Assembly: GCA_934474225.1 (NCBI GenBank)
Contig: CAKSLU010000001.1
Location: 26,599-90,598 of the forward strand
DNA: 64,000 nucleotides
DNA from: an uncultured Eubacteriales bacterium
Lineage (GTDB): Bacteria > Bacillota > Clostridia > Oscillospirales > CAG-272
Direction: 5' to 3'
Both the position numbers and the translations under genes were made by a program. Positions within the stretch are counted from its first letter, which is position 1; every line of letters starts with the position of its first letter. The notes beneath the pieces were generated by a model. That model saw only the letters and a program-made list of their open reading frames with translations, did no database searches and was not told the DNA's origin. Below, piece by piece: positions 4,767 to 42,352 of the stretch.

Positions 4767-5975
4767 TCATTTTGTGATGATGTGCCGGAGCAGCTGACTG
4801 CCGTCCGGGTAATAGAGTTTGGTTGCCTCCGCCGTCTTTTCGGTGAACGGCGTCACGCCGCGTTGTGCCTTCCCGCTGTCATAGAGGAAGAACGGCACCG
4901 GCTCCATGCTGTGCGTGCGGAGTTCAATCGGCGTCGGATGGTCGGGGAGCACATAGATTTTGAAGTCGTCGCCCGAGGCGCAGAGATATTCGTAGACCGA
5001 CTTCAGAATGATGCTGTCAATCTTCTCGATGGCAAGCACCTTGTTTTCGATTTCGGCGCGATGCCCGCATTCGTCCGGCCCCTCAACATGGACGAAAACA
5101 AAATCGTATCCATCCTTGAAGGCTTCAATCGCCGCATCGGCTTTGCCGCGGTAATTGGTGTGCACATTGCCGGTTGCTCCCTTGACATCAATCGAGGTCA
5201 TGCCTGCGCAGATGCCAATGCCCTTGATGAGGTCAACCGCGGAGATGACTGCGCCGCGCAGCCCCCATTTGTCCGCAAAGGAGGGAAGTGCCGGCTTCTT
5301 GCCGGGGCTCCAGAGCCATGCAGAGTTGGCAGGATGCTTGCCCGCGTTCCGCCGCGCAACATTGACCGGGTGGTCCTTCAGAATGTCATAACTTGCCCGC
5401 ATCAGATCGTAGAAGGGCTTGCCTCTGTCGCCGGACGGCAGATAGGGACCGATGCGCTTGCCGATGATATCATGCGGCCGCGCAAAATCATAGGTGTCGT
5501 CGCCGTTTTTCCAGAGCAGGCAGTGCCTGTAGGATACGCCGGTGTAGAAATGGCGCATGTCACTTCCGAGCTTTGCCTCAAGCGTGCGAATCAGCTCGTC
5601 CGCCTCTGCGGTCGAAATCTCGTCGGCACTGTGGTCGAGCATGATTTTGTCGTCATAGTCGCCGTCGTCGCTGAGGGTGACCACATTGCAGCGGTAGGCG
5701 GTTTCGTCCGGCTGCATGGCAAGCCCCATGCTCATGGCTTCCAGCGGCGAGCGCCCTTTGGAGTAGATTTTCGGGTCGTAGGAGAGGATGGCGAGATTTG
5801 CTGTGTCACTCTCGGGCACCATGCCGGTCGGCACATTGGAGACTGTGCCGCAGAGCGACTTCGCCGCGAGGGCGTCCATCATCGGTTTTTCGGCAGCTTC
5901 CATCGGCGTCTTGCCGCCGAGTGCCGCCAGCGGGCGGTCCGCCATGCCGTCGCAGACCAGAACAAAGTATTTCAT
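4767..5975 (-). CDS. apgM: cofactor-independent phosphoglycerate mutase, archaeal/ApgM type
   Basis: MKYFVLVCDGMADRP...HVEGPDECGH motifs of the metalloenzyme superfamily. I placed the start at the ATG 6 nt after AAGGAAG. Confidence 0.75.
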   Translation of the reverse strand: MKYFVLVCDGMADRPLAALGGKTPMEAAEKPMMDALAAKSLCGTVSNVPTGMVPESDTANLAILSYDPKIYSKGRSPLEAMSMGLAMQPDETAYRCNVVTLSDDGDYDDKIMLDHSADEISTAEADELIRTLEAKLGSDMRHFYTGVSYRHCLLWKNGDDTYDFARPHDIIGKRIGPYLPSGDRGKPFYDLMRASYDILKDHPVNVARRNAGKHPANSAWLWSPGKKPALPSFADKWGLRGAVISAVDLIKGIGICAGMTSIDVKGATGNVHTNYRGKADAAIEAFKDGYDFVFVHVEGPDECGHRAEIENKVLAIEKIDSIILKSVYEYLCASGDDFKIYVLPDHPTPIELRTHSMEPVPFFLYDSGKAQRGVTPFTEKTAEATKLYYPDGSQLLRHIITK

Positions 5976-28513: not shown

Positions 28514-31500
28514 ATGAACCGAAGCAGGATGCAGAAATACCGCCGCCTCTTTCCCGTGATGCTGCTTGCCTTTGCGCTCATCTTTGCGCTTGCCGTGTGC
28601 GCCGCGGAAAAGACGGTTTACCTCGGCGCGTCGGATGCGGCGGAAGGCAACGGCAGCGAGGCTGCACCGTTTGCCTCCCTTGCCAAAGCGATTGAAGCTG
28701 TGCAGAGCGGCGGCAGAATCGTTGTCACCGAGACGTATACGGTGACCGAGCGGGATGCCGTCACCGCGGATATACCTCGATTTCTTTCGCCGACGCACGA
28801 AGGGAAGATTACCATCACTTCGCTCGACGGCAAGTTGGACTATCGGCGGGGCGGGGCGTGCATCTACTTCCCGGAGACCTATATCTATGAGTGCGGCGGT
28901 GATGTCCGCTTTGAAAATGTCACGCTGAAAAACGACGCCGCGCCCATTTACCTTGCAGGCAATTTTCACGCGCTGGAATTCGGCGAGGGCTTTGATGTCA
29001 AGAACACAAAGGGCGCTGCCAAGTACCTCTATGTCATCGGCGGCTACTATGCGCCGCGCAGCAAGGACTTTCCTGCAGACCGGGATGCACATATCACCAT
29101 CGACAACGGCAATTTCGCCCGCGTGATTGCCTTCGGCATGGGGAAGGGTGCGGGCACCTACACCTTCACCGGGACGGCGCACATCTACATCCGCGGCGGG
29201 CATATCGACCGCATCTACGGCGGCGCAACGCTGAACCATTATGCGGGCAGCCTTGATTTGCAGGTGCGCGACGGCAGCATCGGCGACATCTATACCTCCG
29301 GCGACGCCACGCGCCGCGCGCTCGGCAATGCGACGGTCGGGCTGTACGGTGGCACGATGCGCACGCTGTATATCAACAACATGCTCGGCAGTACCGAGGT
29401 GACGCTGGACGGCATCAAGCTGAACGGCATACAGGTGACCTTCGGCAGCGAGCAGATTCAGAATCTTGCACACGGCAAGCCGATTCGGCTGCGGTATAAC
29501 TCGCTGCTTTACACGGCGGACTTCGTCGGTGCGGTGGAGGGTATCACTTCTGCCGAACGCTTCGGCGTGCTGTATGTCTCTGCCGACGGGCGCGGCGACG
29601 GCAGCCGGGAGAATCCACTCGGCAGCCTTGCCGATGCCGTCCGACAGTTGGCGGACGGCGGCGGTGACATTGTGCTTGTCGGGGATTATACGGCGGCGGA
29701 TTTTACCGAGCCGACGCATGCACAGCCGATTACCTATCGCGGCGATAGCCTGCTCCTTTCGGGCACATTCACGGCGGGCGGGGATGTCACTTTCGATGCC
29801 ATCACGCTCGGCGGCAGCGGCACGCTTGCGTGCGGCGCGCATAAAGCCATGTTCACCGATGCGTGTGTGACGGACGGCACATTCGCTCTCACGGGCGATG
29901 ACCTTGCCGTGTCCGGCAGCAGTTTTACGTCGGTGCGCGGCAGTAAACTCACATGGGCGGGCGGCGCAACGAAAACCGTCACACTGTCGGACGACGCATC
30001 GCTTGTGCAAAGCGGCGGCAGAATCGCCTCGCTGACGCTGACCGGCAACAGCGCGGCTGCAGAGCTGCTCGGCGGCAGCGTGGAAACGATGATTGTCAAA
30101 GATGTTGCGGACAGTTTTCGTCTGACTCTCGGCGGCGGCAGCATAACGGCGCTGACCGTTATGGGCTGTGGGCAAGCCGAGCTTGTGGCATTGCCTGTGG
30201 CGGACGCGGCGCTCGTCGCGCGGCTGTCGCCCGCGTTCTCGGAGGCGGCGACGCAGACGGCGGCATTTGTCCGCGACGGCGGCACCGGCAACGGTTCGTC
30301 ACCGGAGAACGCCGCGCCGACGCTGGCAGACGCTTATGCCATGCTCCCGGATGGTGGCACCATTGTATTGTGCGGCAAGGTGAGCGTGACCGAGAATACC
30401 GCCATGCCGACATCAAACAAGGCGTATACGCTGACCGGCGTGTACGGCGGCGTGGATTACCGCACCTCCGGCGCGGTGCTCTCGCTTGCCGGCAATGTCG
30501 GCTTTTACGCGCCGACTACGCTGGAAAAGCTGAACATCCGCGCGGAGAAAAGCCCGACCTGGATTTCCTTCAACGGAAGCACGGCGCGTATCGGCAAAGA
30601 GGTCGCCTGTGACCTTGCGCCGAATGCGACCACTTATCCGTCCCTTGTCGGCGGCACGCGCAGAAGCAATTTTGCAATTTCCGGCGCGAACCTGACCGTG
30701 GAGAGCGGCAGCTGGTACCAGGTGTACGGCGCAAACACTGCGGCGGCGGACTTCCCGAATCTGCAGACGACGCTGACGATTACGGGCGGCGACTTCTACA
30801 GCCGCGTCTGCGCGATGGGCGCAGGCAATCAGACCGGCGAGGGCGGCCTCACCGTGCGCGGCGGCAATTTCTACGGCGGCGTGTATGGGCTGGCGTCGCT
30901 TGCCACCGAGACCTTTGACGGCAAAATCCGCATCAACCTGGCGGGCGGCAATTTCTACGGCAAGATTCGCGTTGCCACACGGTATGAGACCACCGTGGAC
31001 GGCAACTTTGATTTGACGGTTTCGGGCGGCGACTACTCGCATGTGACCGATGTGGTCGGCGGCAGCCGGTTCCGCGGCAATGTTGCCTCCACGCTGACCG
31101 CCGCAGACGATACGCTGCTCACGCAGGCGGTAAGCGGCAGTTTCACCTATCAGAACCCCATCCGCAAGACGGCTGACCCGCGTATTGCGCTGGTGGACGG
31201 CATGTATTTCTATATGTTCACCTCCGGCTCTACGCTCAGCATGTACAAGGCGGCAAATGTCGCCGACCTTGCCTATGCGGTAGGGGAGCAGATTTTCGAT
31301 GCGCGCACGGCATCTGACGCGATGGAGACGCGCACGGCATGCATCTGGCCTTCCGAACTGCAATATTTTTCCGCAGAGGAATTCGGCGCGGAAAATGCGG
31401 GCTGGTATCTGTTCTTCTCCACCTTCAGCCGGGAACTGGACGGTCTGCCGTCCACGGCAACCGACGGGCAAAGCCGCCGCAGCTATGTGCTGAAATGCAC

Positions 31501-32638
31501 CTCAAACGACCTGCAGGGCACCTGGGTCAACCCGATTACCGGCGAGGTCGGCGTCCCCGCACGCTTTACGAGCGACACCGAGGACTTTGTCAACACGGTT
31601 GACTGGTGCGCCGGAGAGTCCACGCTGCGTTACGGCGGCAAAACTTATGCGCTCTGGATTGAGCAGCGCGGGCGCGGCACGGCGGACTTTCGCCAGGTGA
31701 TGTATCTCTCCGAGATGAAGAACCCCTGGACCGTGACCGGCAAGGTGCTTGAACTTGTCGCGCCGGAATACGACTGGGAGCGCGAGGGCTACGGCTATGC
31801 CGAGGCGGAGGGGAAGTGGTACCCCGCCGTTATCGAGGGGGCAACGCCGATTGTCGGCGACAACGGTGAACTGCATGTCCTTTACGCATGCAGCGGCTAT
31901 TGGACGACCGGGTATAAACTTGGGCAGATGACCTATCTCGGCGGCGACCTGCTGGCGAAGGAAAACTGGAAGAAGTCGCCGCAATCTGTCTTCTCCAAAA
32001 ACGATGAAGTGTGCGGCGTCGGCGGCCCTTCGATCTTCACATCGCCAAGCGGCAAGATGCGCTGCATCCTGTATCACGGCTACCTCGGCAAAGATACGTC
32101 AAGCGGGCGCTACTGCTTCATGGAGCCGTATACCGTGGATGCGGACGGCGTGCACATCGGCAAGGACGGGCATCCGTCCCCGCTGACGACCACATTTACC
32201 GTGCCGCTGAACACCATGCCGCTCGGCGCAAAGGTTTGCGGATTTGACAACCTCGGCATGACGCGCGTCAAGCTGAAAATCGGCAGTCATACCGGCAGCG
32301 TCAACGAAGCGGAGGCGCAGCTGGACGCAGCGCCGGTCATCCGCAACAACCGCACCATGCTGCCTGCGCGCTTTGTGGCGGAATCCTTCGGTGCTGAGGT
32401 CACCTGGGACGGCGCGACAAGCACGGCGAAGTTTGTCGCAAAAGACGGGACGGTCATATCCATCCGCATCGGTGCGGCACAGGCTGTCGTCAGCGGCAAA
32501 ACCGTCGCGCTCGACACCCCTGCCTACATTGATGCCGCAAGCGGCAGAACCTATCTGCCCGTGCGGTTCCTCGCCGAGTCGCTCGGCGCGTTTGTCGTGT
32601 GGAACGGCGAGACCTCTACGGCATATCTGATTCGATAA
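28514..32638 (+). CDS. secreted multidomain wall protein: repeated beta-helix-like modules + GH43-like propeller + Cu-amine-oxidase-N-like wall-binding domain
   Basis: Signal peptide (LLAFALIFALAVCAAE). About 850 aa of G-rich strand repeats (GGNFYGGVYG...). ADPRIALVDGMYFYMF...WYLFFS...YALWIE... propeller motifs. C-terminal LPARFVAESFGAEVTWD ... YLPVRFLAESLGAFVVWN tandem stalk repeats. It starts 17 nt after the GRE stop, with a GGAGAA SD. Confidence 0.8.
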   Translation: MNRSRMQKYRRLFPVMLLAFALIFALAVCAAEKTVYLGASDAAEGNGSEAAPFASLAKAIEAVQSGGRIVVTETYTVTERDAVTADIPRFLSPTHEGKITITSLDGKLDYRRGGACIYFPETYIYECGGDVRFENVTLKNDAAPIYLAGNFHALEFGEGFDVKNTKGAAKYLYVIGGYYAPRSKDFPADRDAHITIDNGNFARVIAFGMGKGAGTYTFTGTAHIYIRGGHIDRIYGGATLNHYAGSLDLQVRDGSIGDIYTSGDATRRALGNATVGLYGGTMRTLYINNMLGSTEVTLDGIKLNGIQVTFGSEQIQNLAHGKPIRLRYNSLLYTADFVGAVEGITSAERFGVLYVSADGRGDGSRENPLGSLADAVRQLADGGGDIVLVGDYTAADFTEPTHAQPITYRGDSLLLSGTFTAGGDVTFDAITLGGSGTLACGAHKAMFTDACVTDGTFALTGDDLAVSGSSFTSVRGSKLTWAGGATKTVTLSDDASLVQSGGRIASLTLTGNSAAAELLGGSVETMIVKDVADSFRLTLGGGSITALTVMGCGQAELVALPVADAALVARLSPAFSEAATQTAAFVRDGGTGNGSSPENAAPTLADAYAMLPDGGTIVLCGKVSVTENTAMPTSNKAYTLTGVYGGVDYRTSGAVLSLAGNVGFYAPTTLEKLNIRAEKSPTWISFNGSTARIGKEVACDLAPNATTYPSLVGGTRRSNFAISGANLTVESGSWYQVYGANTAAADFPNLQTTLTITGGDFYSRVCAMGAGNQTGEGGLTVRGGNFYGGVYGLASLATETFDGKIRINLAGGNFYGKIRVATRYETTVDGNFDLTVSGGDYSHVTDVVGGSRFRGNVASTLTAADDTLLTQAVSGSFTYQNPIRKTADPRIALVDGMYFYMFTSGSTLSMYKAANVADLAYAVGEQIFDARTASDAMETRTACIWPSELQYFSAEEFGAENAGWYLFFSTFSRELDGLPSTATDGQSRRSYVLKCTSNDLQGTWVNPITGEVGVPARFTSDTEDFVNTVDWCAGESTLRYGGKTYALWIEQRGRGTADFRQVMYLSEMKNPWTVTGKVLELVAPEYDWEREGYGYAEAEGKWYPAVIEGATPIVGDNGELHVLYACSGYWTTGYKLGQMTYLGGDLLAKENWKKSPQSVFSKNDEVCGVGGPSIFTSPSGKMRCILYHGYLGKDTSSGRYCFMEPYTVDADGVHIGKDGHPSPLTTTFTVPLNTMPLGAKVCGFDNLGMTRVKLKIGSHTGSVNEAEAQLDAAPVIRNNRTMLPARFVAESFGAEVTWDGATSTAKFVAKDGTVISIRIGAAQAVVSGKTVALDTPAYIDAASGRTYLPVRFLAESLGAFVVWNGETSTAYLIR

Positions 32639-32640
32639 GC

Positions 32641-32681
32641 AAAAAAAAGAATTCCCTTGCATGCAAGGGAATTCTTTTTTT
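32641..32681. terminator. bidirectional intrinsic terminator (26-bp perfect palindrome)
   Basis: A8 GAATTCCCTTGC at GCAAGGGAATTC T7, between convergent genes. Confidence 0.85.
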
Positions 32682-32683
32682 CG

Positions 32684-34312
<1,629 letters not shown>

Positions 34313-34339
34313 CTATATACATTTTTATTCTTAACTCAT

Positions 34340-34924
34340 TTACTGGTCGTAGGTGCGGATGATATGCTCGGCGACCTCACGGCGGGACAGCCGTGTGTCC
34401 ATCGCCTGCTTTTCGATGTAATAATGCGCATCCTGCTCGGTCATGGAAAGGTGCTCGATCAGCAGCCACTTTGCGCGGTTGACCACGCGGATGTCCTCCA
34501 TCTTTTCCTTCAGCGTGCGGTTCTGCTTTTCCATCTTGGCAAGGCGCGCATGCGTGGCGACCAGCAGTTTTATCGCGATGCAGAAGGTCTGGCGGTTTAC
34601 TGGGCGCGGCAGGGTGAGCACGCCGCTGTCCTCCAGCCGATAGGCGACCTGCTCATACAACTCGCCCTTGCACAAGGCGAGCACGCCGCAGGTGCCCGCG
34701 GCACAGTCGAGTGCAAACTCCGTGCCGAATTCGTCCGGCAGAGGCGTATTGATGATGACGATATCGTAGTCGGTGCTGAGCAGCAGCCGTTTGGCTTCGC
34801 CCGCGCTTGCCACATGCGTGACCGGATCGTATTCGCCGGACGGCAGCAGCTCCCGGATGTAGTCATACGCCTGCGTTCCGGCGGAGACGACCAGCACCCG
34901 ACAGAGCGGTTTGGGTGTCGTCAT
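34340..34924 (-). CDS. ANTAR-domain RNA-binding regulator with atypical (pseudo-)receiver domain
   Basis: C-terminal ANTAR pattern (DIRVVNRAKWLLIEHLSMTEQDAHYYIEKQAMDTRLSRREVAEHII). The N-terminal CheY-like fold has VLVVSAGT in place of the acidic pair and IVIINTPLP in place of the phospho-acceptor Asp. Confidence 0.8.
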   Translation of the reverse strand: MTTPKPLCRVLVVSAGTQAYDYIRELLPSGEYDPVTHVASAGEAKRLLLSTDYDIVIINTPLPDEFGTEFALDCAAGTCGVLALCKGELYEQVAYRLEDSGVLTLPRPVNRQTFCIAIKLLVATHARLAKMEKQNRTLKEKMEDIRVVNRAKWLLIEHLSMTEQDAHYYIEKQAMDTRLSRREVAEHIIRTYDQ

Positions 34925-34930
34925 GGCGGC

Positions 34931-36148
34931 TTACCTCCGCGCGTCGGTCAGAAACGCGGCGGCGTCCTCGCCAAGCACGCGGCGCACGAGCGCGCTGCCG
35001 CTTGCCAGCGAAACAGCCTCGGCGAGGCTGCCCGGCAGCGTGTCAAATTCGCGCGTCTCACTCTCGGGCGCGGTCAGCAGATTGAGATTGACCGCAGGCG
35101 CGGGGCACATGTCCTTTTCAATGCCGTCAAGCCCCGCCCGGATGAGCAGCGCATAGGCAAGATAAGGGTTGGCGGACGGGTCTGGCGAGCGCAGCTCAAT
35201 GCGGCGGTATTCGCCCTTTGCCGCCGGAATGCGAATCAGCTGTGAGCGGTTTTCATGCGACCAGGTGACAAACTTCGGTGCTTTGCATTTGCCGAAGCGG
35301 CTGTAGGACGCCTCACTCGGATTGAGAAAGGCTGTGATGTCGCGGATGTGCGCGAGGATACCTGCCATGAAGGCGGGGGTGCGGTCGGTACCGTCGTCGC
35401 ATTTCACCGACATGTTGATGTGCAGTCCGTTGCCGCTCTCGTTTTCCAGCGGCTTCGGCGAGAAGTCGGCATACAGACCGTTTTGCGTTGCAGTTGCCTT
35501 GACCACCGTGATGAAGTTCATCGCATCGTCGGCGGCGCGCATCGCGTCGCTGTAGCGGAAGTCAATCTCGTTTTGCCCTGGCCCCTCCTCGTGATGTGAG
35601 CTTTCGGGCTGAATGCCCATGTCCAGCAGGGTGAGGCAAATTTCGCGGCGCACATTCTCGCCCTTGTCCTCGGGCGCGACATCCATGTAGGTTGCATGGT
35701 CAAACGGAATCTTGGTCGGGTCGCCGTTTTCATCCGTTTTGAAGAGGTAAAACTCGATTTCCGCGCCGAACTGCACCGTTACGCCCGCAGCTTTCGCATC
35801 GGCAACGGCGCGGCGCAGAATGGCGCGCGTGTCGCGCGCAAACGGCGTGCCGTCCGGGTGACGGATGTCGCAGAACATGCGCACGACCTTGCCGTGCGAA
35901 GGACGCCAGGGCAGCACATTCAGCGTGGATGGGTCGGGAAACAGCAGAAGGTCGGACTTTTCTGCACTGCCGAAGCCGCAGATGGCAGAGGCATCAAACG
36001 AAATGCCGTCCTCAAACGCGCGGCGCAGTTCACTCGGCAGAATGGAGATGTTCTTCTGTCTGCCGTGCGTGTCGCAAAAGGCAAGGCGGATGAACTTGAC
36101 ATCCTCTTCTTTCACAAAGTCGAATACCTCTTGTGCCGTGTACATCAT
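34931..36148 (-). CDS. glnA: glutamine synthetase (short type I-like, 405 aa)
   Basis: FIRLAFCDTHGRQK, FGAEIEFYLF, SSHHEEGPGQNEIDF, SGNGLHINMS, NRSQLIRIP, RIELRSPD motifs of GS. GGAGGG SD. Confidence 0.9.
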   Translation of the reverse strand: MMYTAQEVFDFVKEEDVKFIRLAFCDTHGRQKNISILPSELRRAFEDGISFDASAICGFGSAEKSDLLLFPDPSTLNVLPWRPSHGKVVRMFCDIRHPDGTPFARDTRAILRRAVADAKAAGVTVQFGAEIEFYLFKTDENGDPTKIPFDHATYMDVAPEDKGENVRREICLTLLDMGIQPESSHHEEGPGQNEIDFRYSDAMRAADDAMNFITVVKATATQNGLYADFSPKPLENESGNGLHINMSVKCDDGTDRTPAFMAGILAHIRDITAFLNPSEASYSRFGKCKAPKFVTWSHENRSQLIRIPAAKGEYRRIELRSPDPSANPYLAYALLIRAGLDGIEKDMCPAPAVNLNLLTAPESETREFDTLPGSLAEAVSLASGSALVRRVLGEDAAAFLTDARR

Positions 36149-36173
36149 ACCGTTTCCCTCCGCGCATTTTTAT

Positions 36174-36230
36174 AAAAAGAGAGAAGGATGCCGGCTACAA
36201 GGGCAGCGCCCCAAGGTAGCAAACATCCTT
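36174..36230 (-). terminator. leader (attenuator) terminator upstream of glnA
   Basis: Minus strand: AAGGATG...GCTAC...GGG gcgctg CCC...GTAGC...CATCCTT followed by CTCTCTTTTT. It lies between the glnA promoter and the glnA SD. Confidence 0.55.
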
Positions 36231-36236
36231 GTTTAC
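36219..36236 (-). promoter_or_regulatory. hexaloop hairpin (loop AAGGAT) overlapping the glnA leader terminator; candidate ANTAR target
   Basis: Minus strand: GTAAAC AAGGAT GTTTGC. Loop position 1 is A and position 4 is G. The loop and 3' arm form the 5' arm of the terminator. Confidence 0.45.
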
Positions 36237-36242
36237 CTTAAA

Positions 36243-36271
36243 AGTATACAACGTACCGCCGCGCTTGTCAA
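36243..36271 (-). promoter_or_regulatory. sigma-70-type promoter for glnA
   Basis: Minus strand: TTGACA (36271-36266), 17-nt spacer, TATACT (36248-36243). Confidence 0.6.
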
Positions 36272-36422
36272 TAAAAAAGTTTCAAAAAAAGACATGTTTT
36301 TTCATACGCTGCGCTGCTTGAAAAATGGCGGTTTTTCATCGTCGCTTTGCAGCGAAACGCGCGCTTTTTACCTCGCTGTATCGTGCAGATTTCACAGAGC
36401 GAAAATTTTTTTCAAAAAATGC

Positions 36423-36451
36423 TTGACAAGCCTTTTTTTCGGTGCTATAAT
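36423..36451 (+). promoter_or_regulatory. sigma-70-type promoter for the glnN-amt-asnB unit
   Basis: TTGACA (36423-36428), 17-nt spacer, TGnTATAAT (36443-36451). Confidence 0.65.
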
Positions 36452-36463
36452 CTCACCCATAAA

Positions 36464-36479
36464 GCGACAAGGGAGCCGC
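36464..36479 (+). promoter_or_regulatory. hexaloop hairpin (loop AAGGGA) overlapping the leader terminator; candidate ANTAR target
   Basis: GCGAC AAGGGA GCCGC, with one A-C mismatch. The 3' arm is shared with the terminator 5' arm. Confidence 0.45.
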
Positions 36480-36515
36480 GGACGAAGTTTTTTCGTCTGC
36501 GGTTTTCTCATTTTT
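36476..36515 (+). terminator. leader (attenuator) terminator upstream of type III GS
   Basis: CCGCGGACGAA gtttt TTCGTCTGCGG (11 bp, one G-U pair) followed by TTTTCTCATTTTT. It lies 100 nt upstream of the glnN start. Confidence 0.65.
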
Positions 36516-36526
36516 ATGTCACATAC

Positions 36527-36546
36527 GGGCGACAAGGAGGTCGCCC
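36527..36546 (+). promoter_or_regulatory. second hexaloop hairpin (loop AAGGAG) overlapping a downstream CCCGGG-closed stem
   Basis: GGGCGAC AAGGAG GTCGCCC, a perfect 7-bp stem. The 3' arm overlaps stem 36544-36576 (CCCGGG..CGGCG..CGCCG CCCGGG). Confidence 0.45.
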
Positions 36547-36615
36547 GGGCATCGGCGTTTTATGCCGCCGCCCGGGTCTCCCTGCCGCTCAATTTTTATT
36601 TTAAGGAGAAAGAAC

Positions 36616-38709
<2,094 letters not shown>

Positions 38710-38754: not shown

Positions 38755-40515
38755 ATGAGTATGGAAGCGATTGCAGCATTGATGGATGAAAAGCTGTTTG
38801 CCGTGTGGTTTCTGATCGGCGCGGCACTGGTGTTCTGGATGCAGGCGGGCTTTGCCATGGTGGAGACCGGCTTCACCCGTGCGAAGAATGCAGGCAACAT
38901 CCTGATGAAGAATCTGATGGACTTCTGCATCGGCACAGTCGTGTTTATCCTGATTGGCTTCGGGCTTTTCCTCGGCGAGGATTTGGTCGGGCTTATCGGC
39001 AAACCCGGATTTGATATTTTCACCGCCTATGCGGACTTCAACTGGTCGGCATTCGTCTTCAACCTGGTGTTCTGCGCAACGGCGGCGACCATTGTTTCCG
39101 GCGCGATGGCAGAGCGCACAAAATTCCTTTCGTATTGCATTTATTCCGCCGTGATTTCGGCTTTTATCTACCCGATCGAGGCACACTGGATCTGGGGCGG
39201 CGGCTGGCTCTCGCAGATCGGCTTCCACGACTTCGCCGGTTCTTGTGCGATTCATATGGTCGGCGGTATTTCGGCGCTCATCGGCGCAAAAATGCTCGGA
39301 CCGCGCATCGGCAAGTTTACAAAGGATAAGACGGGTAAGATTGTCAAGGTCAACGCCTTCCCGGGGCACAACATCACCATCGGTTGCCTCGGCGTGTTCA
39401 TCTTGTGGCTCGGCTGGTACGGGTTCAACGGCGCGGCGGCAACCTCCGTCGCACAGCTCGGCTCCATCTTTGTGACCACGACGGTTGCACCTGCCGTTGC
39501 AACCGTGGTCTGCATGACTTTCACCTGGCTCAAATACGGCAAACCCGATGTGTCCATGTGCCTCAATGCGTCGCTTGCCGGACTTGTCGCCATCACGGCG
39601 GGCTGTGATGTCACCGATGTGGCGGGCGCAATCGTTATCAGTGCGGTTTCCGGCGTGCTGGTCGTCTTCGGCGTGTGGCTGTTGGACTACAAACTGCATA
39701 TTGATGACCCGGTCGGCGCCATTGCCGTCCATTGCCTCAACGGCATCTGGGGCACGATTGCCGTCGGTCTGTTTGCGACCGATACGGCGCCCGGTTACAG
39801 CATTGCAGACAAGAGTGGTGTGAAGCTGGTCGGCCTGTTCTACGGCGGCGGCTTTGAACTGCTCGGCTTGCAGCTGCTCGGCGCGGCTACGGTGGCACTT
39901 TGGACGGCAGTGACGATTACGATTACCTTCATCCTGATTCGCAAGACGGTCGGTCTGCGTGCCTCCGAGGAGGAGGAAATGCTGGGGCTGGATGTGACCG
40001 AGCACGGGCTTTCCAGTGCCTATGCGGGCTTTGCCTTCCTGCCCGAGACGCTTGCGCCCGAGACGATGGAAGAGCCTGTCGTGGTTGCCGGTGACACGCC
40101 GGTTGCCGAGGCAGTTGAGGTCAAGGCAATGCCGACCTTCGCGGGACCGCGGGACGGCAAGAAGCTGACCAAGGTGGAGATTGTCTGCAAGGAGGCAAAG
40201 CTCGAGGCGCTGAAGGATGCCATGATGGCAATCGGCATCACGGGCATGACCGTGTCGCATGTCATGGGCTGCGGCGCGCAGAAGGGCAAACCAGAGTATT
40301 ACCGCGGCGCACTCGTCGAGGCAACGCTGCTGCCGAAGATTCAGGTGGACATCGTGGTCAGCAAAGTGCCTGTTTCGGCGGTCATTGAGACGGCGAAAAA
40401 GGTGCTGTACACCGGGCATATCGGTGACGGCAAAATCTTCGTCTATGATGTGGAGAATGTCGTCAAGGTCCGCACCGGCGAGGAGGGCTATGACGCCCTC
40501 CAGGATGTAGAATAA
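38755..40515 (+). CDS. amt: ammonium transporter (Amt) fused to a C-terminal P-II (GlnB/GlnK) domain
   Basis: WMQAGFAMVETGFTRAKNA and AGSCAIHMVGG Amt motifs. After a linker of about 50 aa comes a full P-II domain (KVEIVCKEAKLEALKDAMMAIGITGMTVSHVMGCGAQKGKPEYYRGA...GDGKIFVYDVENVVKVRTGEEG). Confidence 0.9.
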   Translation: MSMEAIAALMDEKLFAVWFLIGAALVFWMQAGFAMVETGFTRAKNAGNILMKNLMDFCIGTVVFILIGFGLFLGEDLVGLIGKPGFDIFTAYADFNWSAFVFNLVFCATAATIVSGAMAERTKFLSYCIYSAVISAFIYPIEAHWIWGGGWLSQIGFHDFAGSCAIHMVGGISALIGAKMLGPRIGKFTKDKTGKIVKVNAFPGHNITIGCLGVFILWLGWYGFNGAAATSVAQLGSIFVTTTVAPAVATVVCMTFTWLKYGKPDVSMCLNASLAGLVAITAGCDVTDVAGAIVISAVSGVLVVFGVWLLDYKLHIDDPVGAIAVHCLNGIWGTIAVGLFATDTAPGYSIADKSGVKLVGLFYGGGFELLGLQLLGAATVALWTAVTITITFILIRKTVGLRASEEEEMLGLDVTEHGLSSAYAGFAFLPETLAPETMEEPVVVAGDTPVAEAVEVKAMPTFAGPRDGKKLTKVEIVCKEAKLEALKDAMMAIGITGMTVSHVMGCGAQKGKPEYYRGALVEATLLPKIQVDIVVSKVPVSAVIETAKKVLYTGHIGDGKIFVYDVENVVKVRTGEEGYDALQDVE

Positions 40516-40519
40516 AGCG

Positions 40520-40745
40520 AAACCGAAAGAGTAGCACGGATAAGGTCGGTACAGCGAGCGCGGGATGGTGAGAGCCGCGCGCGGCTCCCGGTGTGAAGAA
40601 CACTTTCGCGGCATGCCGCCACGCGGTTTGCCGTGCTTTCGCAGACAGTTGAATACGAGGGATACCGACGGAATTTTCCGCACGGATAATACAGGTGGCA
40701 CCGCGGGCAGCACAGCTCGTCCTGTGAAACAAACGATGTGCCGTG
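40520..40745 (+). promoter_or_regulatory. T-box leader, probable Asn (AAC) specifier
   Basis: Stem I base AGCACGG(40533-39)/CCGTGCT(40631-37) preceded by AAAGAGTA. Candidate specifier GAAG-AAC-A (AAC 40599-40601). Stem III CGGAAttTTCCG. T-box sequence ACAGGTGGCACCGCGGG (40691-40707). Confidence 0.75.
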
Positions 40746-40771
40746 ACTGTATGAATTTCGGAGGGATTTCT

Positions 40772-42352
40772 ATGTGTTCGATTATGGGCTATTGCGGGAA
40801 GGACATCACCGCAGAAAAATTCAAGGAATGCTTTGACAGAACCTTGTCGCGCGGACCGGATATGTCGCGCGTGGTTGATACCGGCAGCGGGCTGCTCGGC
40901 TTTCACCGCCTTGCGATTATGGGGCTGTCGGAGAGCGGCATGCAGCCGTTTTCGGCAGACGGCAGCTATGTGGTCTGCAACGGGGAACTCTATGGCTTCC
41001 GCAAGACCAAAAAGGAGCTTGAAGCCAAAGGATACCACTTCGTCAGTGACTCCGACTGCGAGCTTTTGCTGCCGTTGTATCGGGAATACGGCACTGCTAT
41101 GTTTGAAAAGCTGGATGCCGAATTTGCGATGGTTCTCTACGACGGCAAAACGGGGCAATACATTGCCGCGCGCGACCCGATTGGCATTCGCCCGCTGTTT
41201 TACGGCTACACGGACGGCGGCACTGTCGTTTTTGCCAGCGAGGCGAAAAACCTCGTCGGTCTTTGCAAAAAGGTCATCCCGTTTCCGCCCGGGCACTATT
41301 ATAAGGACGGCAAATTCGTTTGCTATCGCGACATCAGCCGCCCGCAGGCCGTCTGTCATGACGACCTTGAGACTGCCTGCACAAAGATTCGCGAAAAGCT
41401 GATTTGCGGCATCGAAAAGCGGTTGGACGCGGATGCGCCGCTCGGCTTTCTGCTGTCGGGCGGGCTGGACTCCTCGTTGGTTTGCGCTGTGGCGGCAAAA
41501 CTCTTGAAAAAACCGATTCGCACCTTTGCCATCGGCATGAGCACCGACGCAATAGACCTCAAATATGCAAAGCAGGTCGCCGACTATATCGGCGCCGAAC
41601 ACACCGAGGTCATCATTACAAAGGAAGACGTGCTCGCTGCGCTGCCCGAGGTGGTTGCTCTGCTTGGCACCTATGACATCACCACTATCCGCGCATCTAT
41701 CGGGATGTATCTCGTCTGCAAGTACATTCACGCGCACACCGATTTGCGCGTGCTGCTCACGGGCGAGATTTCGGATGAACTGTTCGGCTACAAATATACC
41801 GACTTTGCGCCGTCTGCCGCCGCCTTTCAGGCGGAAGCGGAGAAGCGCATCCGTGAGCTGTACATGTACGATGTGCTGCGCGCCGACCGCTGCATCTCGG
41901 TCAACTCGCTTGAGGCGCGCGTGCCGTTCGGCGACCTCGACTTTGTCAGCTATGTGATGTCGCTCGACCCCGAGATGAAGCTGAACCGCTACGGCAAGGG
42001 CAAGTATCTCCTGCGCCATGCGTTTGAGGGCGACTGGCTGCCGCACGACATTCTGATGCGGGAGAAGGCGGCGTTCAGTGACGCGGTCGGCCACTCGATG
42101 GTGGATGACCTCAAGGCATTCGCCGAAAGCCGCTACACCGATGCGGAATTTGAAGAGAAGTGCAAGGCATATATCTTCGCCAAGCCCTTTACCAAGGAAT
42201 CGCTCCTTTACCGCGAGCTGTTTGAGACCTATTATCCGGGGCAGGCAGAGATGGTGGCGGACTTCTGGATGCCCAACAAGAGCTGGGCGGGCTGCGATGT
42301 GAACGACCCCTCTGCCCGCGTGCTTGCAAACTACGGCGACAGCGGCAAATAA
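40772..42352 (+). CDS. asnB: asparagine synthase (glutamine-hydrolysing)
   Basis: MCSIMGY start (Cys2 Ntn nucleophile), LLSGGLDSS PP-loop, GGAGGG SD. I trimmed the start from ORF 40565. Confidence 0.92.
   Translation: MCSIMGYCGKDITAEKFKECFDRTLSRGPDMSRVVDTGSGLLGFHRLAIMGLSESGMQPFSADGSYVVCNGELYGFRKTKKELEAKGYHFVSDSDCELLLPLYREYGTAMFEKLDAEFAMVLYDGKTGQYIAARDPIGIRPLFYGYTDGGTVVFASEAKNLVGLCKKVIPFPPGHYYKDGKFVCYRDISRPQAVCHDDLETACTKIREKLICGIEKRLDADAPLGFLLSGGLDSSLVCAVAAKLLKKPIRTFAIGMSTDAIDLKYAKQVADYIGAEHTEVIITKEDVLAALPEVVALLGTYDITTIRASIGMYLVCKYIHAHTDLRVLLTGEISDELFGYKYTDFAPSAAAFQAEAEKRIRELYMYDVLRADRCISVNSLEARVPFGDLDFVSYVMSLDPEMKLNRYGKGKYLLRHAFEGDWLPHDILMREKAAFSDAVGHSMVDDLKAFAESRYTDAEFEEKCKAYIFAKPFTKESLLYRELFETYYPGQAEMVADFWMPNKSWAGCDVNDPSARVLANYGDSGK

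Follow-up and report, generated by a model that had tools for sequence, protein, structure and literature searches.

Introduction

Can a single small RNA hairpin serve as the target of an ANTAR-domain antiterminator? The question is raised by a 64,000-nucleotide (nt) stretch of DNA from an uncultured Oscillospiraceae-type gut bacterium (the window, meaning here the whole of that stretch), in which two genes that encode glutamine synthetases, glnA and glnN, are divergently transcribed and a gene for an ANTAR-domain regulator follows glnA. ANTAR regulators are widespread, yet the rule for their RNA targets comes largely from EutV, for which two hairpins are obligatory. An earlier note, made from the sequence alone, had drawn attention to three hexaloop hairpins that overlap terminators on both sides of the divergent region. 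The present analysis indicates that the two leaders probably hold three antitermination switches that depend on a protein and belong to an ANTAR (NitR-like) nitrogen regulon, with one hexaloop per terminator.

Hexaloop hairpins in the glnA and glnN leaders

The divergent spacer between glnA and glnN is 467 nt long, and two near-consensus sigma-70 promoters in it point outwards. All three hairpins were recovered at the positions first proposed for them, each with the loop signature of A at position 1 and G at position 4. The glnA leader, on the minus strand, carries GUAAAC-AAGGAU-GUUUGC (36219-36236, loop 36230-36225), which scores 27.2 bits with a covariance model and folds alone at -4.3 kcal/mol. 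The glnN leader, on the plus strand, carries two hairpins: that of module 1, GCGAC-AAGGGA-GCCGC (36464-36479; 12 bits), and that of module 2, GGGCGAC-AAGGAG-GUCGCCC (36527-36546; 26.5 bits). The module 2 hairpin folds alone at -13 kcal/mol; that of module 1, with four pairs and one A.C mismatch beside the closing pair, is marginal by itself (-2.8 kcal/mol).

A search for further hairpins across the 64 kilobases (kb) of the window with the covariance model matched only these three sites. The training set of this model contained both strong window sites, and it is therefore the conservation in dozens of other species, described below, that constitutes independent evidence. Two permissive Rfam scans of the leaders returned no family and only chance-level matches. 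The short patterns ACAAGGNNG and GCGACAAGG were set aside as uninformative in the window, being too frequent in coding DNA.

The loops had also been likened to Shine-Dalgarno sequences, but a role of that kind is not supported: they lie 70-150 nt from start codons, and orthologous loops include AAGGGC, AAUGGC and AAAGAU. Their richness in purines follows from the fixed A1, A2 and G4. An 18-codon open reading frame (ORF) in the window glnA leader begins at the AUG of AAGGAUG and is gone wherever the orthologous loop is AAGGAC. A leader-peptide reading of the loops was accordingly rejected, as this short ORF is not conserved.

Competition between hairpins and intrinsic terminators

Folding of both leaders in alternative states bore out the proposal that each of the first two hairpins shares bases with a stronger terminator, making hairpin and terminator mutually exclusive. 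In the glnA leader, the intrinsic terminator (36174-36229, minus strand) consists of a stem at 36229-36185 followed by CUCUCU and a U run at 36178-36174, and its 5' arm is made of hairpin loop bases 2-6 together with the hairpin 3' arm. The minimum free energy of this leader is -32.4 kcal/mol, compared with -26.1 kcal/mol when the small hairpin is forced, a cost of about 6 kcal/mol.

The glnN leader holds two terminators in series. Terminator 1 (36470-36517, plus strand) has its stem at 36470-36508, with a core CCGCGGACGAA/UUCGUCUGCGG at 36476-36502 followed by UUUUCUCAUUUUUAU in a U-rich tract (36503-36517). This stem takes up the loop bases and the 3' arm of the module 1 hairpin, and its fold reaches -26.4 kcal/mol, compared with -10.3 kcal/mol when that hairpin is forced. 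Terminator 2 (36527-36602, plus strand) has an outer stem that pairs 36527-36539, the 5' arm and loop of the module 2 hairpin, with 36578-36590, encloses a CCCGGG stem (36543-36577), and is followed by AAUUUUUAUUUU (36591-36602). It folds at -41.4 kcal/mol, compared with -33.1 kcal/mol when the module 2 hairpin is forced. The overlap of this third hairpin with the CCCGGG stem had been seen correctly in the earlier note; what had been missed is that the hairpin opposes the larger second terminator (36527-36590 and its U tract).

The antiterminated states of the glnN leader are thus 16 and 8 kcal/mol less stable than terminators 1 and 2, and across the window leaders the alternative states lie 6 to 19 kcal/mol apart. 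The plus-strand leader folds with a z-score of -5.7, and none of 200 shuffled sequences folds as well. Weak hairpins set against strong terminators are the arrangement that would be expected if a factor holds the hairpins shut. The same mutual exclusivity is found both in the window and in about 90 orthologous modules.

A separate feature was observed in the window clade, where base-pairing is possible between the CUCUCUU past the glnA terminator and the ribosome-binding site GGAGGG (36155-36184, minus strand). This pairing, absent from distant relatives, is a possible extra translational layer.

Conservation and covariation

The comparison set comprised 80 loci that encode relatives of the ANTAR protein at 47-94% identity, mostly from uncultured Oscillospiraceae and other Clostridia, with some spirochaetes. 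glnA is adjacent to the ANTAR gene in most of these loci, and a divergent glnN is common. One of them, L047, comes from a cultured relative, Pseudoflavonifractor sp. MSJ-30, and carries the glnA leader as well as the glnN leader. The hairpins recur in orthologous leaders of dozens of species, and in about 40 species hairpins and terminators have changed in a compensatory way. In 39 loci, GUAAAC-AAGGAY-GUUUGC occurs in the glnA leader, placed 6-8 nt past a conserved -10 box, and in about 30 loci GCGAC-AAGGNN-GUCGY occurs in the glnN leader. Ahead of glnN module 2, module 1 is present as AAGCGAC-AAGGNN-GCCGC with the same A.C mismatch in 18 loci, and is fully paired (GAC...GUC) in more distant ones.

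Across 71 distinct hairpins, stem pairing is kept in 90.4% of cells, and double changes occur in five of the six pairs. Covariation scores 0.573, compared with 0.221 for shuffled alignments (0 of 500 reach 0.573) and at most 0.122 with the pairing partner slid, although few independent events underlie it because much of the signal is the contrast between glnA-type and glnN-type stems. Changes within a type are also seen, such as GUAAAC/GUUUGC and GUGAAC/GUUCGC. The hexaloop with A1 and G4 fits all 71 collected orthologous hairpins, partly by construction. In an unbiased census of hexaloop hairpins with stems of at least 5 base pairs (bp), AC-AAGGAU-GU, AC-AAGGAC-GU and AC-AAGGGC-GU were by far the commonest.

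The opposing terminators are conserved as well. Among glnA-type leaders they range from -14.6 to -37.6 kcal/mol, mostly from -20 to -35, while the hairpin alone lies between 0 and -6.2, and the loop bases are consumed by the terminator in all of these leaders. The terminator 3' arm tracks the loop as it changes (AAGGAU/AUCCUU, AAGGAC/GUCC, AAUGAU/CAUUG, AAAGAU/AUCUUUG). Similarly, the 3' arm CCCUUGYCGC of orthologous glnN terminator 2 complements AGCGACAAGGG and follows the loop changes.

A metagenome scan with GCGACAAGGNNGTCG...CTTGYCGC returned 120 matches, of which 112 lack a downstream U run, being either soil coding sequence of high GC content or copies of a single unrelated palindrome that recurs in gut samples. 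The remaining eight look like real leaders; the three that were inspected lie upstream of glnN in gut relatives, and the scan brought no new information about the regulon. In human gut metagenome contigs (L088, L109, L131, L132, L147, L149, L151 and others), a perfect hairpin, GCGACAAGGCCGTCGCCC-GAAA-GGGCGGCGGCCTTGTCGC, was seen repeatedly. It lies at a gene end with no U tract and contains the GCGACAAGG string, and it appears unrelated to the nitrogen leaders.

Extent of the probable regulon

In 705 kb of related loci, the covariance model gave 107 matches. Of these, 41 lie upstream of glnA and 34 upstream of glnN; others precede asnB, which encodes an asparagine synthetase of 526 residues, and amtB-glnK. 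Those before pyrG lie between it and the ANTAR gene, and matches were also obtained ahead of a purF-like gene and of a gene for a glutamate-synthase-like amidotransferase. At least one match is false, as it falls inside a coding region (gltB in L012). Every true target encodes a protein that produces or uses glutamine or imports ammonium, and the presence of the same module before asnB, amtB-glnK, pyrG and the glutamate-synthase-like gene points to a nitrogen regulon.

Several observations concern individual branches of this set. In ten relatives (L009, L010, L012, L013, L018, L024, L029, L037, L042 and L044; approximately positions 5560-5660), a module CGAAC-AANGGC-GUUCG with a terminator stands after the ANTAR gene. 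The gene that follows it is mostly pyrG, with a purF-like gene in L024 and a 320-codon ORF in L012. The 42-nt gap between the ANTAR gene and pyrG in the window (34298-34339) holds no such module. In the asnB or amtB leaders of L009, L010, L026, L028 and L052, the AC-AAGGNN-GU hairpin is preceded, at a distance of about 20 nt, by an additional short stem-loop; this stem-loop lies near the predicted 5' end, its loop is variable, and it is not an A..G.. hexaloop.

In the window, a T-box leader (40511-40727, plus strand; 59.3 bits, E = 4e-11, short of the Rfam gathering score of 93) that is unrelated to the glnA and glnN leaders precedes an asparagine synthetase gene (Asn_synthase and GATase_7 domains; ORF 40565-42352, the true start probably lying near 40772). 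Orthologous asnB genes in L009, L010, L013, L026 and L028 carry an AC-AAGGNN-GU hairpin and terminator module instead of the T-box, an apparent swap of regulatory element.

One hairpin per terminator and alternative readings

Published ANTAR targets are defined by two hairpins, both needed for EutV, and the leaders could in principle be canonical dual-hexaloop sites in which a weaker second hairpin was overlooked, or in which the two glnN hairpins act as the first and second hairpin (P1 and P2) around terminator 1 as a linker. The glnN leader does hold two hexaloop hairpins, and the apical loop of terminator 1 is an A..G.. hexaloop in three relatives (L014, L018, L019). The search for a partner nevertheless upheld the view that each terminator is opposed by one hairpin. 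Stems of 3 bp and of 4 bp both served as thresholds; with at least 3 bp required and a distance of no more than 45 nt, another A..G.. hexaloop hairpin was found in 9 of 40 glnA-type and 14 of 57 glnN-type modules, that is 22-25%, compared with 18-21% for shuffled flanks. These chance-level hexaloops never occupy a conserved position, and several overlap promoter boxes. A stricter scan of 769 kb for dual motifs with a U run returned only promoter-overlapping or unrelated pairs. The glnA, asnB and pyrG modules have a single hairpin only. The predicted glnA promoter (TTGACA-17-TATACT, 36243-36271, minus strand; 11 of 12 consensus matches) ends its -10 box 6 nt ahead of the hairpin, a spacing that is 6-8 nt in orthologous leaders. 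Judged by the promoter consensus, the hairpin would begin at about the first transcribed base, so that an upstream P1 would have no transcript to lie in. A distance of 47 nt separates the two glnN hairpins, and each has its own terminator, whereas a 14-nt or a 20-nt-lengthened linker already inactivated EutV sites. A dual-hexaloop architecture is therefore considered unlikely here. The apical GCGAGGAGC loop of glnA terminators was also evaluated as a disguised P2 and rejected: it is a penta- or heptaloop, forms part of the terminator and is absent from the window clade. This apical loop is conserved in L004, L005, L006, L009, L011, L013, L017, L020, L021, L023, L025-L028 and L032, and its window-clade counterpart is GCGCUG.

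Two further readings dispense with an ANTAR protein. The high-affinity consensus of CsrA is RUACARGGAUGU; the glnA-type hairpin ACAAGGAUGU matches it at 11 of 12 positions, and 49 of the 71 hairpins have a GGA in the loop, the three window hairpins among them provided that AAGGGA counts as well. A different RNA-binding protein such as a CsrA-type regulator might thus read the hairpins. The other 22 hairpins, however, lack GGA (AAGGGC, AAUGGC, AAAGAU, AAUGAU), yet are conserved at the same positions. The fixed features, A1, A2 and G4 with AC/GU closing pairs, correspond to the ANTAR pattern, even if their fixity is partly a product of the collection procedure. Near the locus, no gene resembling csrA was noted, whereas in nearly all relatives the operon includes an ANTAR gene. 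Given the conserved hairpins without GGA, CsrA-type recognition is judged quite improbable. A hairpin at the extreme 5' end can also protect a transcript, and the 18-codon ORF in the window glnA leader would suit an attenuator; the hairpins could then be mRNA-stabilizing stem-loops or parts of constitutive or leader-peptide attenuators, their ANTAR likeness being incidental. The same loop and closing pairs, however, also turn up internally: in glnN module 2, in the spacer between the ANTAR gene and pyrG, and in asnB leaders, where another 5' hairpin comes first. At such sites, protecting the 5' end is beside the point. The short ORF is lost in orthologues with AAGGAC loops. Moreover, the hairpins are too weak to compete unaided with the terminators, so that the leaders would simply terminate if no factor intervened. 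A role without any protein is accordingly given very little probability.

The ANTAR regulator

The regulator gene (34340-34924, minus strand) encodes a protein of 194 amino acids with a Pfam ANTAR domain (PF03861, E = 2.7e-17). By sequence matches, the protein is laid out as a receiver-like N-terminal domain, a coiled coil and a C-terminal ANTAR domain, and residues 22-190 match Rv1626 (1s8n, E = 4.8e-14), EutV (6wsh) and AmiR (1qo0). In the EutV-RNA structure, Tyr164 stacks on G4 and Met172 is the plug residue (PMC8934654). His167 occupies the Tyr164 position and is invariant in 80 of 80 homologues, the Met aligned with Met172 is invariant in a 13-sequence alignment, and basic residues are kept at the positions of EutV K143 and K147.

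At the phospho-acceptor position, which closes beta-3, the window protein has Asn, as do 65 of the 80 homologues, and the acidic pair after beta-1 is replaced by Ser, Gly or Ala. The protein thus looks like an AmiR-type pseudo-receiver and not a kinase-driven response regulator. AmiR/AmiC and NasT/NasS are pseudo-receiver ANTAR systems in which the regulator is controlled by a protein partner instead of phosphorylation. With no phosphorylatable Asp, the window regulator is probably switched by a bound partner or ligand that reports nitrogen status. No AmiC-like or NasS-like sensor gene was found within the glnA-ANTAR operon. As a matter of speculation, the tightly coupled short GlnA, or the P-II domain encoded across the divergent promoter, may be the partner.

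Genes of the locus

The minus-strand order is glnA, the ANTAR gene and pyrG. glnA (34931-36148, minus strand; Pfam Gln-synt_C and Gln-synt_N) encodes a short type I glutamine synthetase of 405 amino acids. Its best structure matches are solved GSI-alpha enzymes (E about 1e-105), relative to which it lacks some 30-40 C-terminal residues, and its 353 bits fall below the 429-bit NCBIfam cut-off for GlnA. Only 6 nt separate the glnA stop codon from the ANTAR start codon, a spacing that suggests co-transcription.

On the plus strand, glnN (36616-38709; Pfam GSIII_N, Gln-synt_C and Gln-synt_C-ter) encodes a type III glutamine synthetase of 697 amino acids. Its predicted promoter (TTGACA-17-TATAAT with an extended TG, 36423-36451, plus strand) matches the consensus at 12 of 12 positions, and the position is kept in orthologues. 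An amtB-glnK fusion gene (38755-40515, plus strand; Pfam Ammonium_transp and P-II; NCBIfam amt and P-II), encoding an ammonium transporter with a P-II domain, follows after a gap of 45 nt and probably shares a transcript with glnN.

Elsewhere in the window, a perfect AT-rich palindrome flanked by A/T runs (32640-32683) is found downstream of pyrG and has the appearance of a terminator that works in both directions; several spurious Rfam matches (microRNA families, PyrG_leader) arose from it. A 1374-codon ORF (28514-32638, plus strand) has as its sole Pfam match a C-terminal pair of copper amine oxidase N-terminal-like domains and probably encodes a cell-surface protein unrelated to the leaders.

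Proposed mechanism

By default, each leader would fold into its strong intrinsic terminator and transcription would stop before glnA or glnN. The small AC-AANGNN-GU hairpin is transcribed ahead of the rest of the terminator, and an active ANTAR protein would clamp its hexaloop and closing pairs. When the terminator 3' arm emerged 35-50 nt later, it could not displace the clamped bases; the leftover upper part of the terminator would be too far from the U tract to act, and polymerase would read into glnA-ANTAR(-pyrG) or glnN-amtB/glnK. In a cell lacking active protein, the far more stable terminator would form.

The same hairpin is wired in three ways. In the glnA type, the loop and 3' arm are common to hairpin and terminator. 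In glnN module 2 and asnB, the common part is the 5' arm and loop, and in glnN module 1 it is the 3' arm, joined in some leaders by loop bases. The glnN leader has two single-hairpin modules in series. The glnA-ANTAR operon would regulate itself. As NitR of Clostridium saccharobutylicum suggests by analogy, the regulator is expected to be active when nitrogen is limiting.

A number of points weigh against this interpretation. Both hairpins are needed at EutV sites, and lengthening the linker abolishes antitermination (PMC3369931), so that a one-hairpin site contradicts the only well-tested case. The A.C mismatch in the second closing pair of module 1 is conserved, and a similar change inactivated a EutV site. 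The U run of the window glnA terminator is displaced by 6 nt from the stem (CUCUCU, then UUUUU), and a simple terminator scan did not list this terminator; in homologous glnA leaders the U tract directly adjoins the stem. One orthologue (L021) has G at loop position 1. The related loci were all retrieved through the ANTAR gene, and the co-occurrence of motif and protein therefore covers ANTAR-encoding loci only. The collection pattern required AANG and the closing pairs, so that A1, A2, G4 and the closing C-G pair are invariant partly by design. Finally, transcript starts are predicted from promoter consensus, and we infer the binding of the hairpins by the protein, its effect on termination, the sufficiency of one hairpin and the nature of the signal.

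A broader proposal can be put forward tentatively, with somewhat less than an even chance of being right: a widespread class of single-hexaloop sites in gut Clostridia, each able by itself to overcome an intrinsic terminator as transcription proceeds, often at the transcript 5' end, whose non-phosphorylatable regulator would be set by contact with the co-translated short GlnA or with P-II.

Relation to known ANTAR systems

The closest mechanistic parallel is the eut leaders of Enterococcus faecalis with EutV/EutW, which likewise have A1/G4 hexaloops and AC/GU closing pairs and exclude an intrinsic terminator. At EutV sites, the closing-pair residues whose identity mattered are A27, C28, G35 and U36 (PMC3369931). 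The proteins are also alike, in that both combine a receiver-like domain, a coiled coil and an ANTAR domain and conserve the G4-stacking aromatic residue and the Met plug. The eut sites, in contrast, pair P1 with P2 across a linker of 5-12 nt (2-25 nt in later curation of dual hairpins), whereas the window leaders have one hairpin per terminator. In addition, the window hairpin loop is itself base-paired in the terminator, the regulator has Asn in place of the phosphorylated Asp, and the targets are nitrogen assimilation genes instead of ethanolamine genes. The 2022 EutV-RNA structure showed that the dimer touches one hexaloop at a time, and the minimal binding unit was redefined as one hexaloop (PMC8934654). 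Walshe 2022 asked whether natural single-hexaloop sites exist and what they would regulate, and suggested that such sites might function only if RNA polymerase set no time limit (PMC8934654).

In gene context, the nearest relative is NitR (formerly GlnR), encoded downstream of glnA and known as an antiterminator in C. saccharobutylicum. As far as the cited sources go, strain NCP262 has a glnA-ANTAR operon with proposed antitermination of glutamine synthetase/glutamate synthase (GS/GOGAT) genes under nitrogen limitation, and the system also involves antisense RNA (PMC6316151, PMC4676874); the likeness to the window is one of gene context and proposed regulation. The window differs in its host, in its short GlnA and in its divergent glnN. 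AmiR/AmiC of Pseudomonas aeruginosa and NasT/NasS are similar in having a pseudo-receiver, and the window regulator aligns with AmiR and lacks the acceptor Asp, but its operon has no gene for an AmiC-like or NasS-like sensor.

Ramesh 2012 (PMC3369931) had already placed predicted ANTAR sites before genes for glutamine synthetase, amt and P-II, a glnA-ANTAR operon of Alkaliphilus among them. Those of its Table S2, such as Amet_3386/3385 of Alkaliphilus metalliredigens, resemble the window in having glnA followed by the ANTAR gene and a terminator overlapped by the motif. They differ in having been found and defined by a two-hairpin model of 45-64 nt, whereas the window modules lack a second hairpin and belong to no Rfam family. 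Actinobacterial ANTAR RNAs that overlap ribosome-binding sites (PMC8164766) also depart from the firmicute consensus, and some disobey the classical dual motif (Walshe 2022, PMC8934654). They are mostly translational and were curated as dual stem-loops with linkers of 2-25 nt (PMC8164766), whereas the window modules would act on intrinsic terminators far from the start codon. The 2012 predictions and NitR together indicate that this kind of system was already known; it is the single-hexaloop architecture that differs. No paper was found on natural single-hexaloop ANTAR antiterminators or on the AC-AANGNN-GU motif, and the primary NitR paper (Stutz 2007) might show a similar hairpin.

Implications

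If the single-hexaloop class is real, it would contradict the two-hairpin requirement drawn from EutV. In this family, dozens of natural single-hexaloop sites abut intrinsic terminators, and a single protein and an RNA of 18 nt would suffice to put the question to the test. Such a class would further mean that an entire nitrogen regulon of abundant gut Clostridia, comprising glnA, glnN, amtB-glnK, asnB, pyrG and a glutamate-synthase-like gene, escapes Rfam and searches built on two hairpins. Nitrogen sensing by a pseudo-receiver becomes an approachable question in these bacteria, and the circuit, if true, would be an RNA-level counterpart of the GS-TnrA/GlnR circuit of Bacillus.

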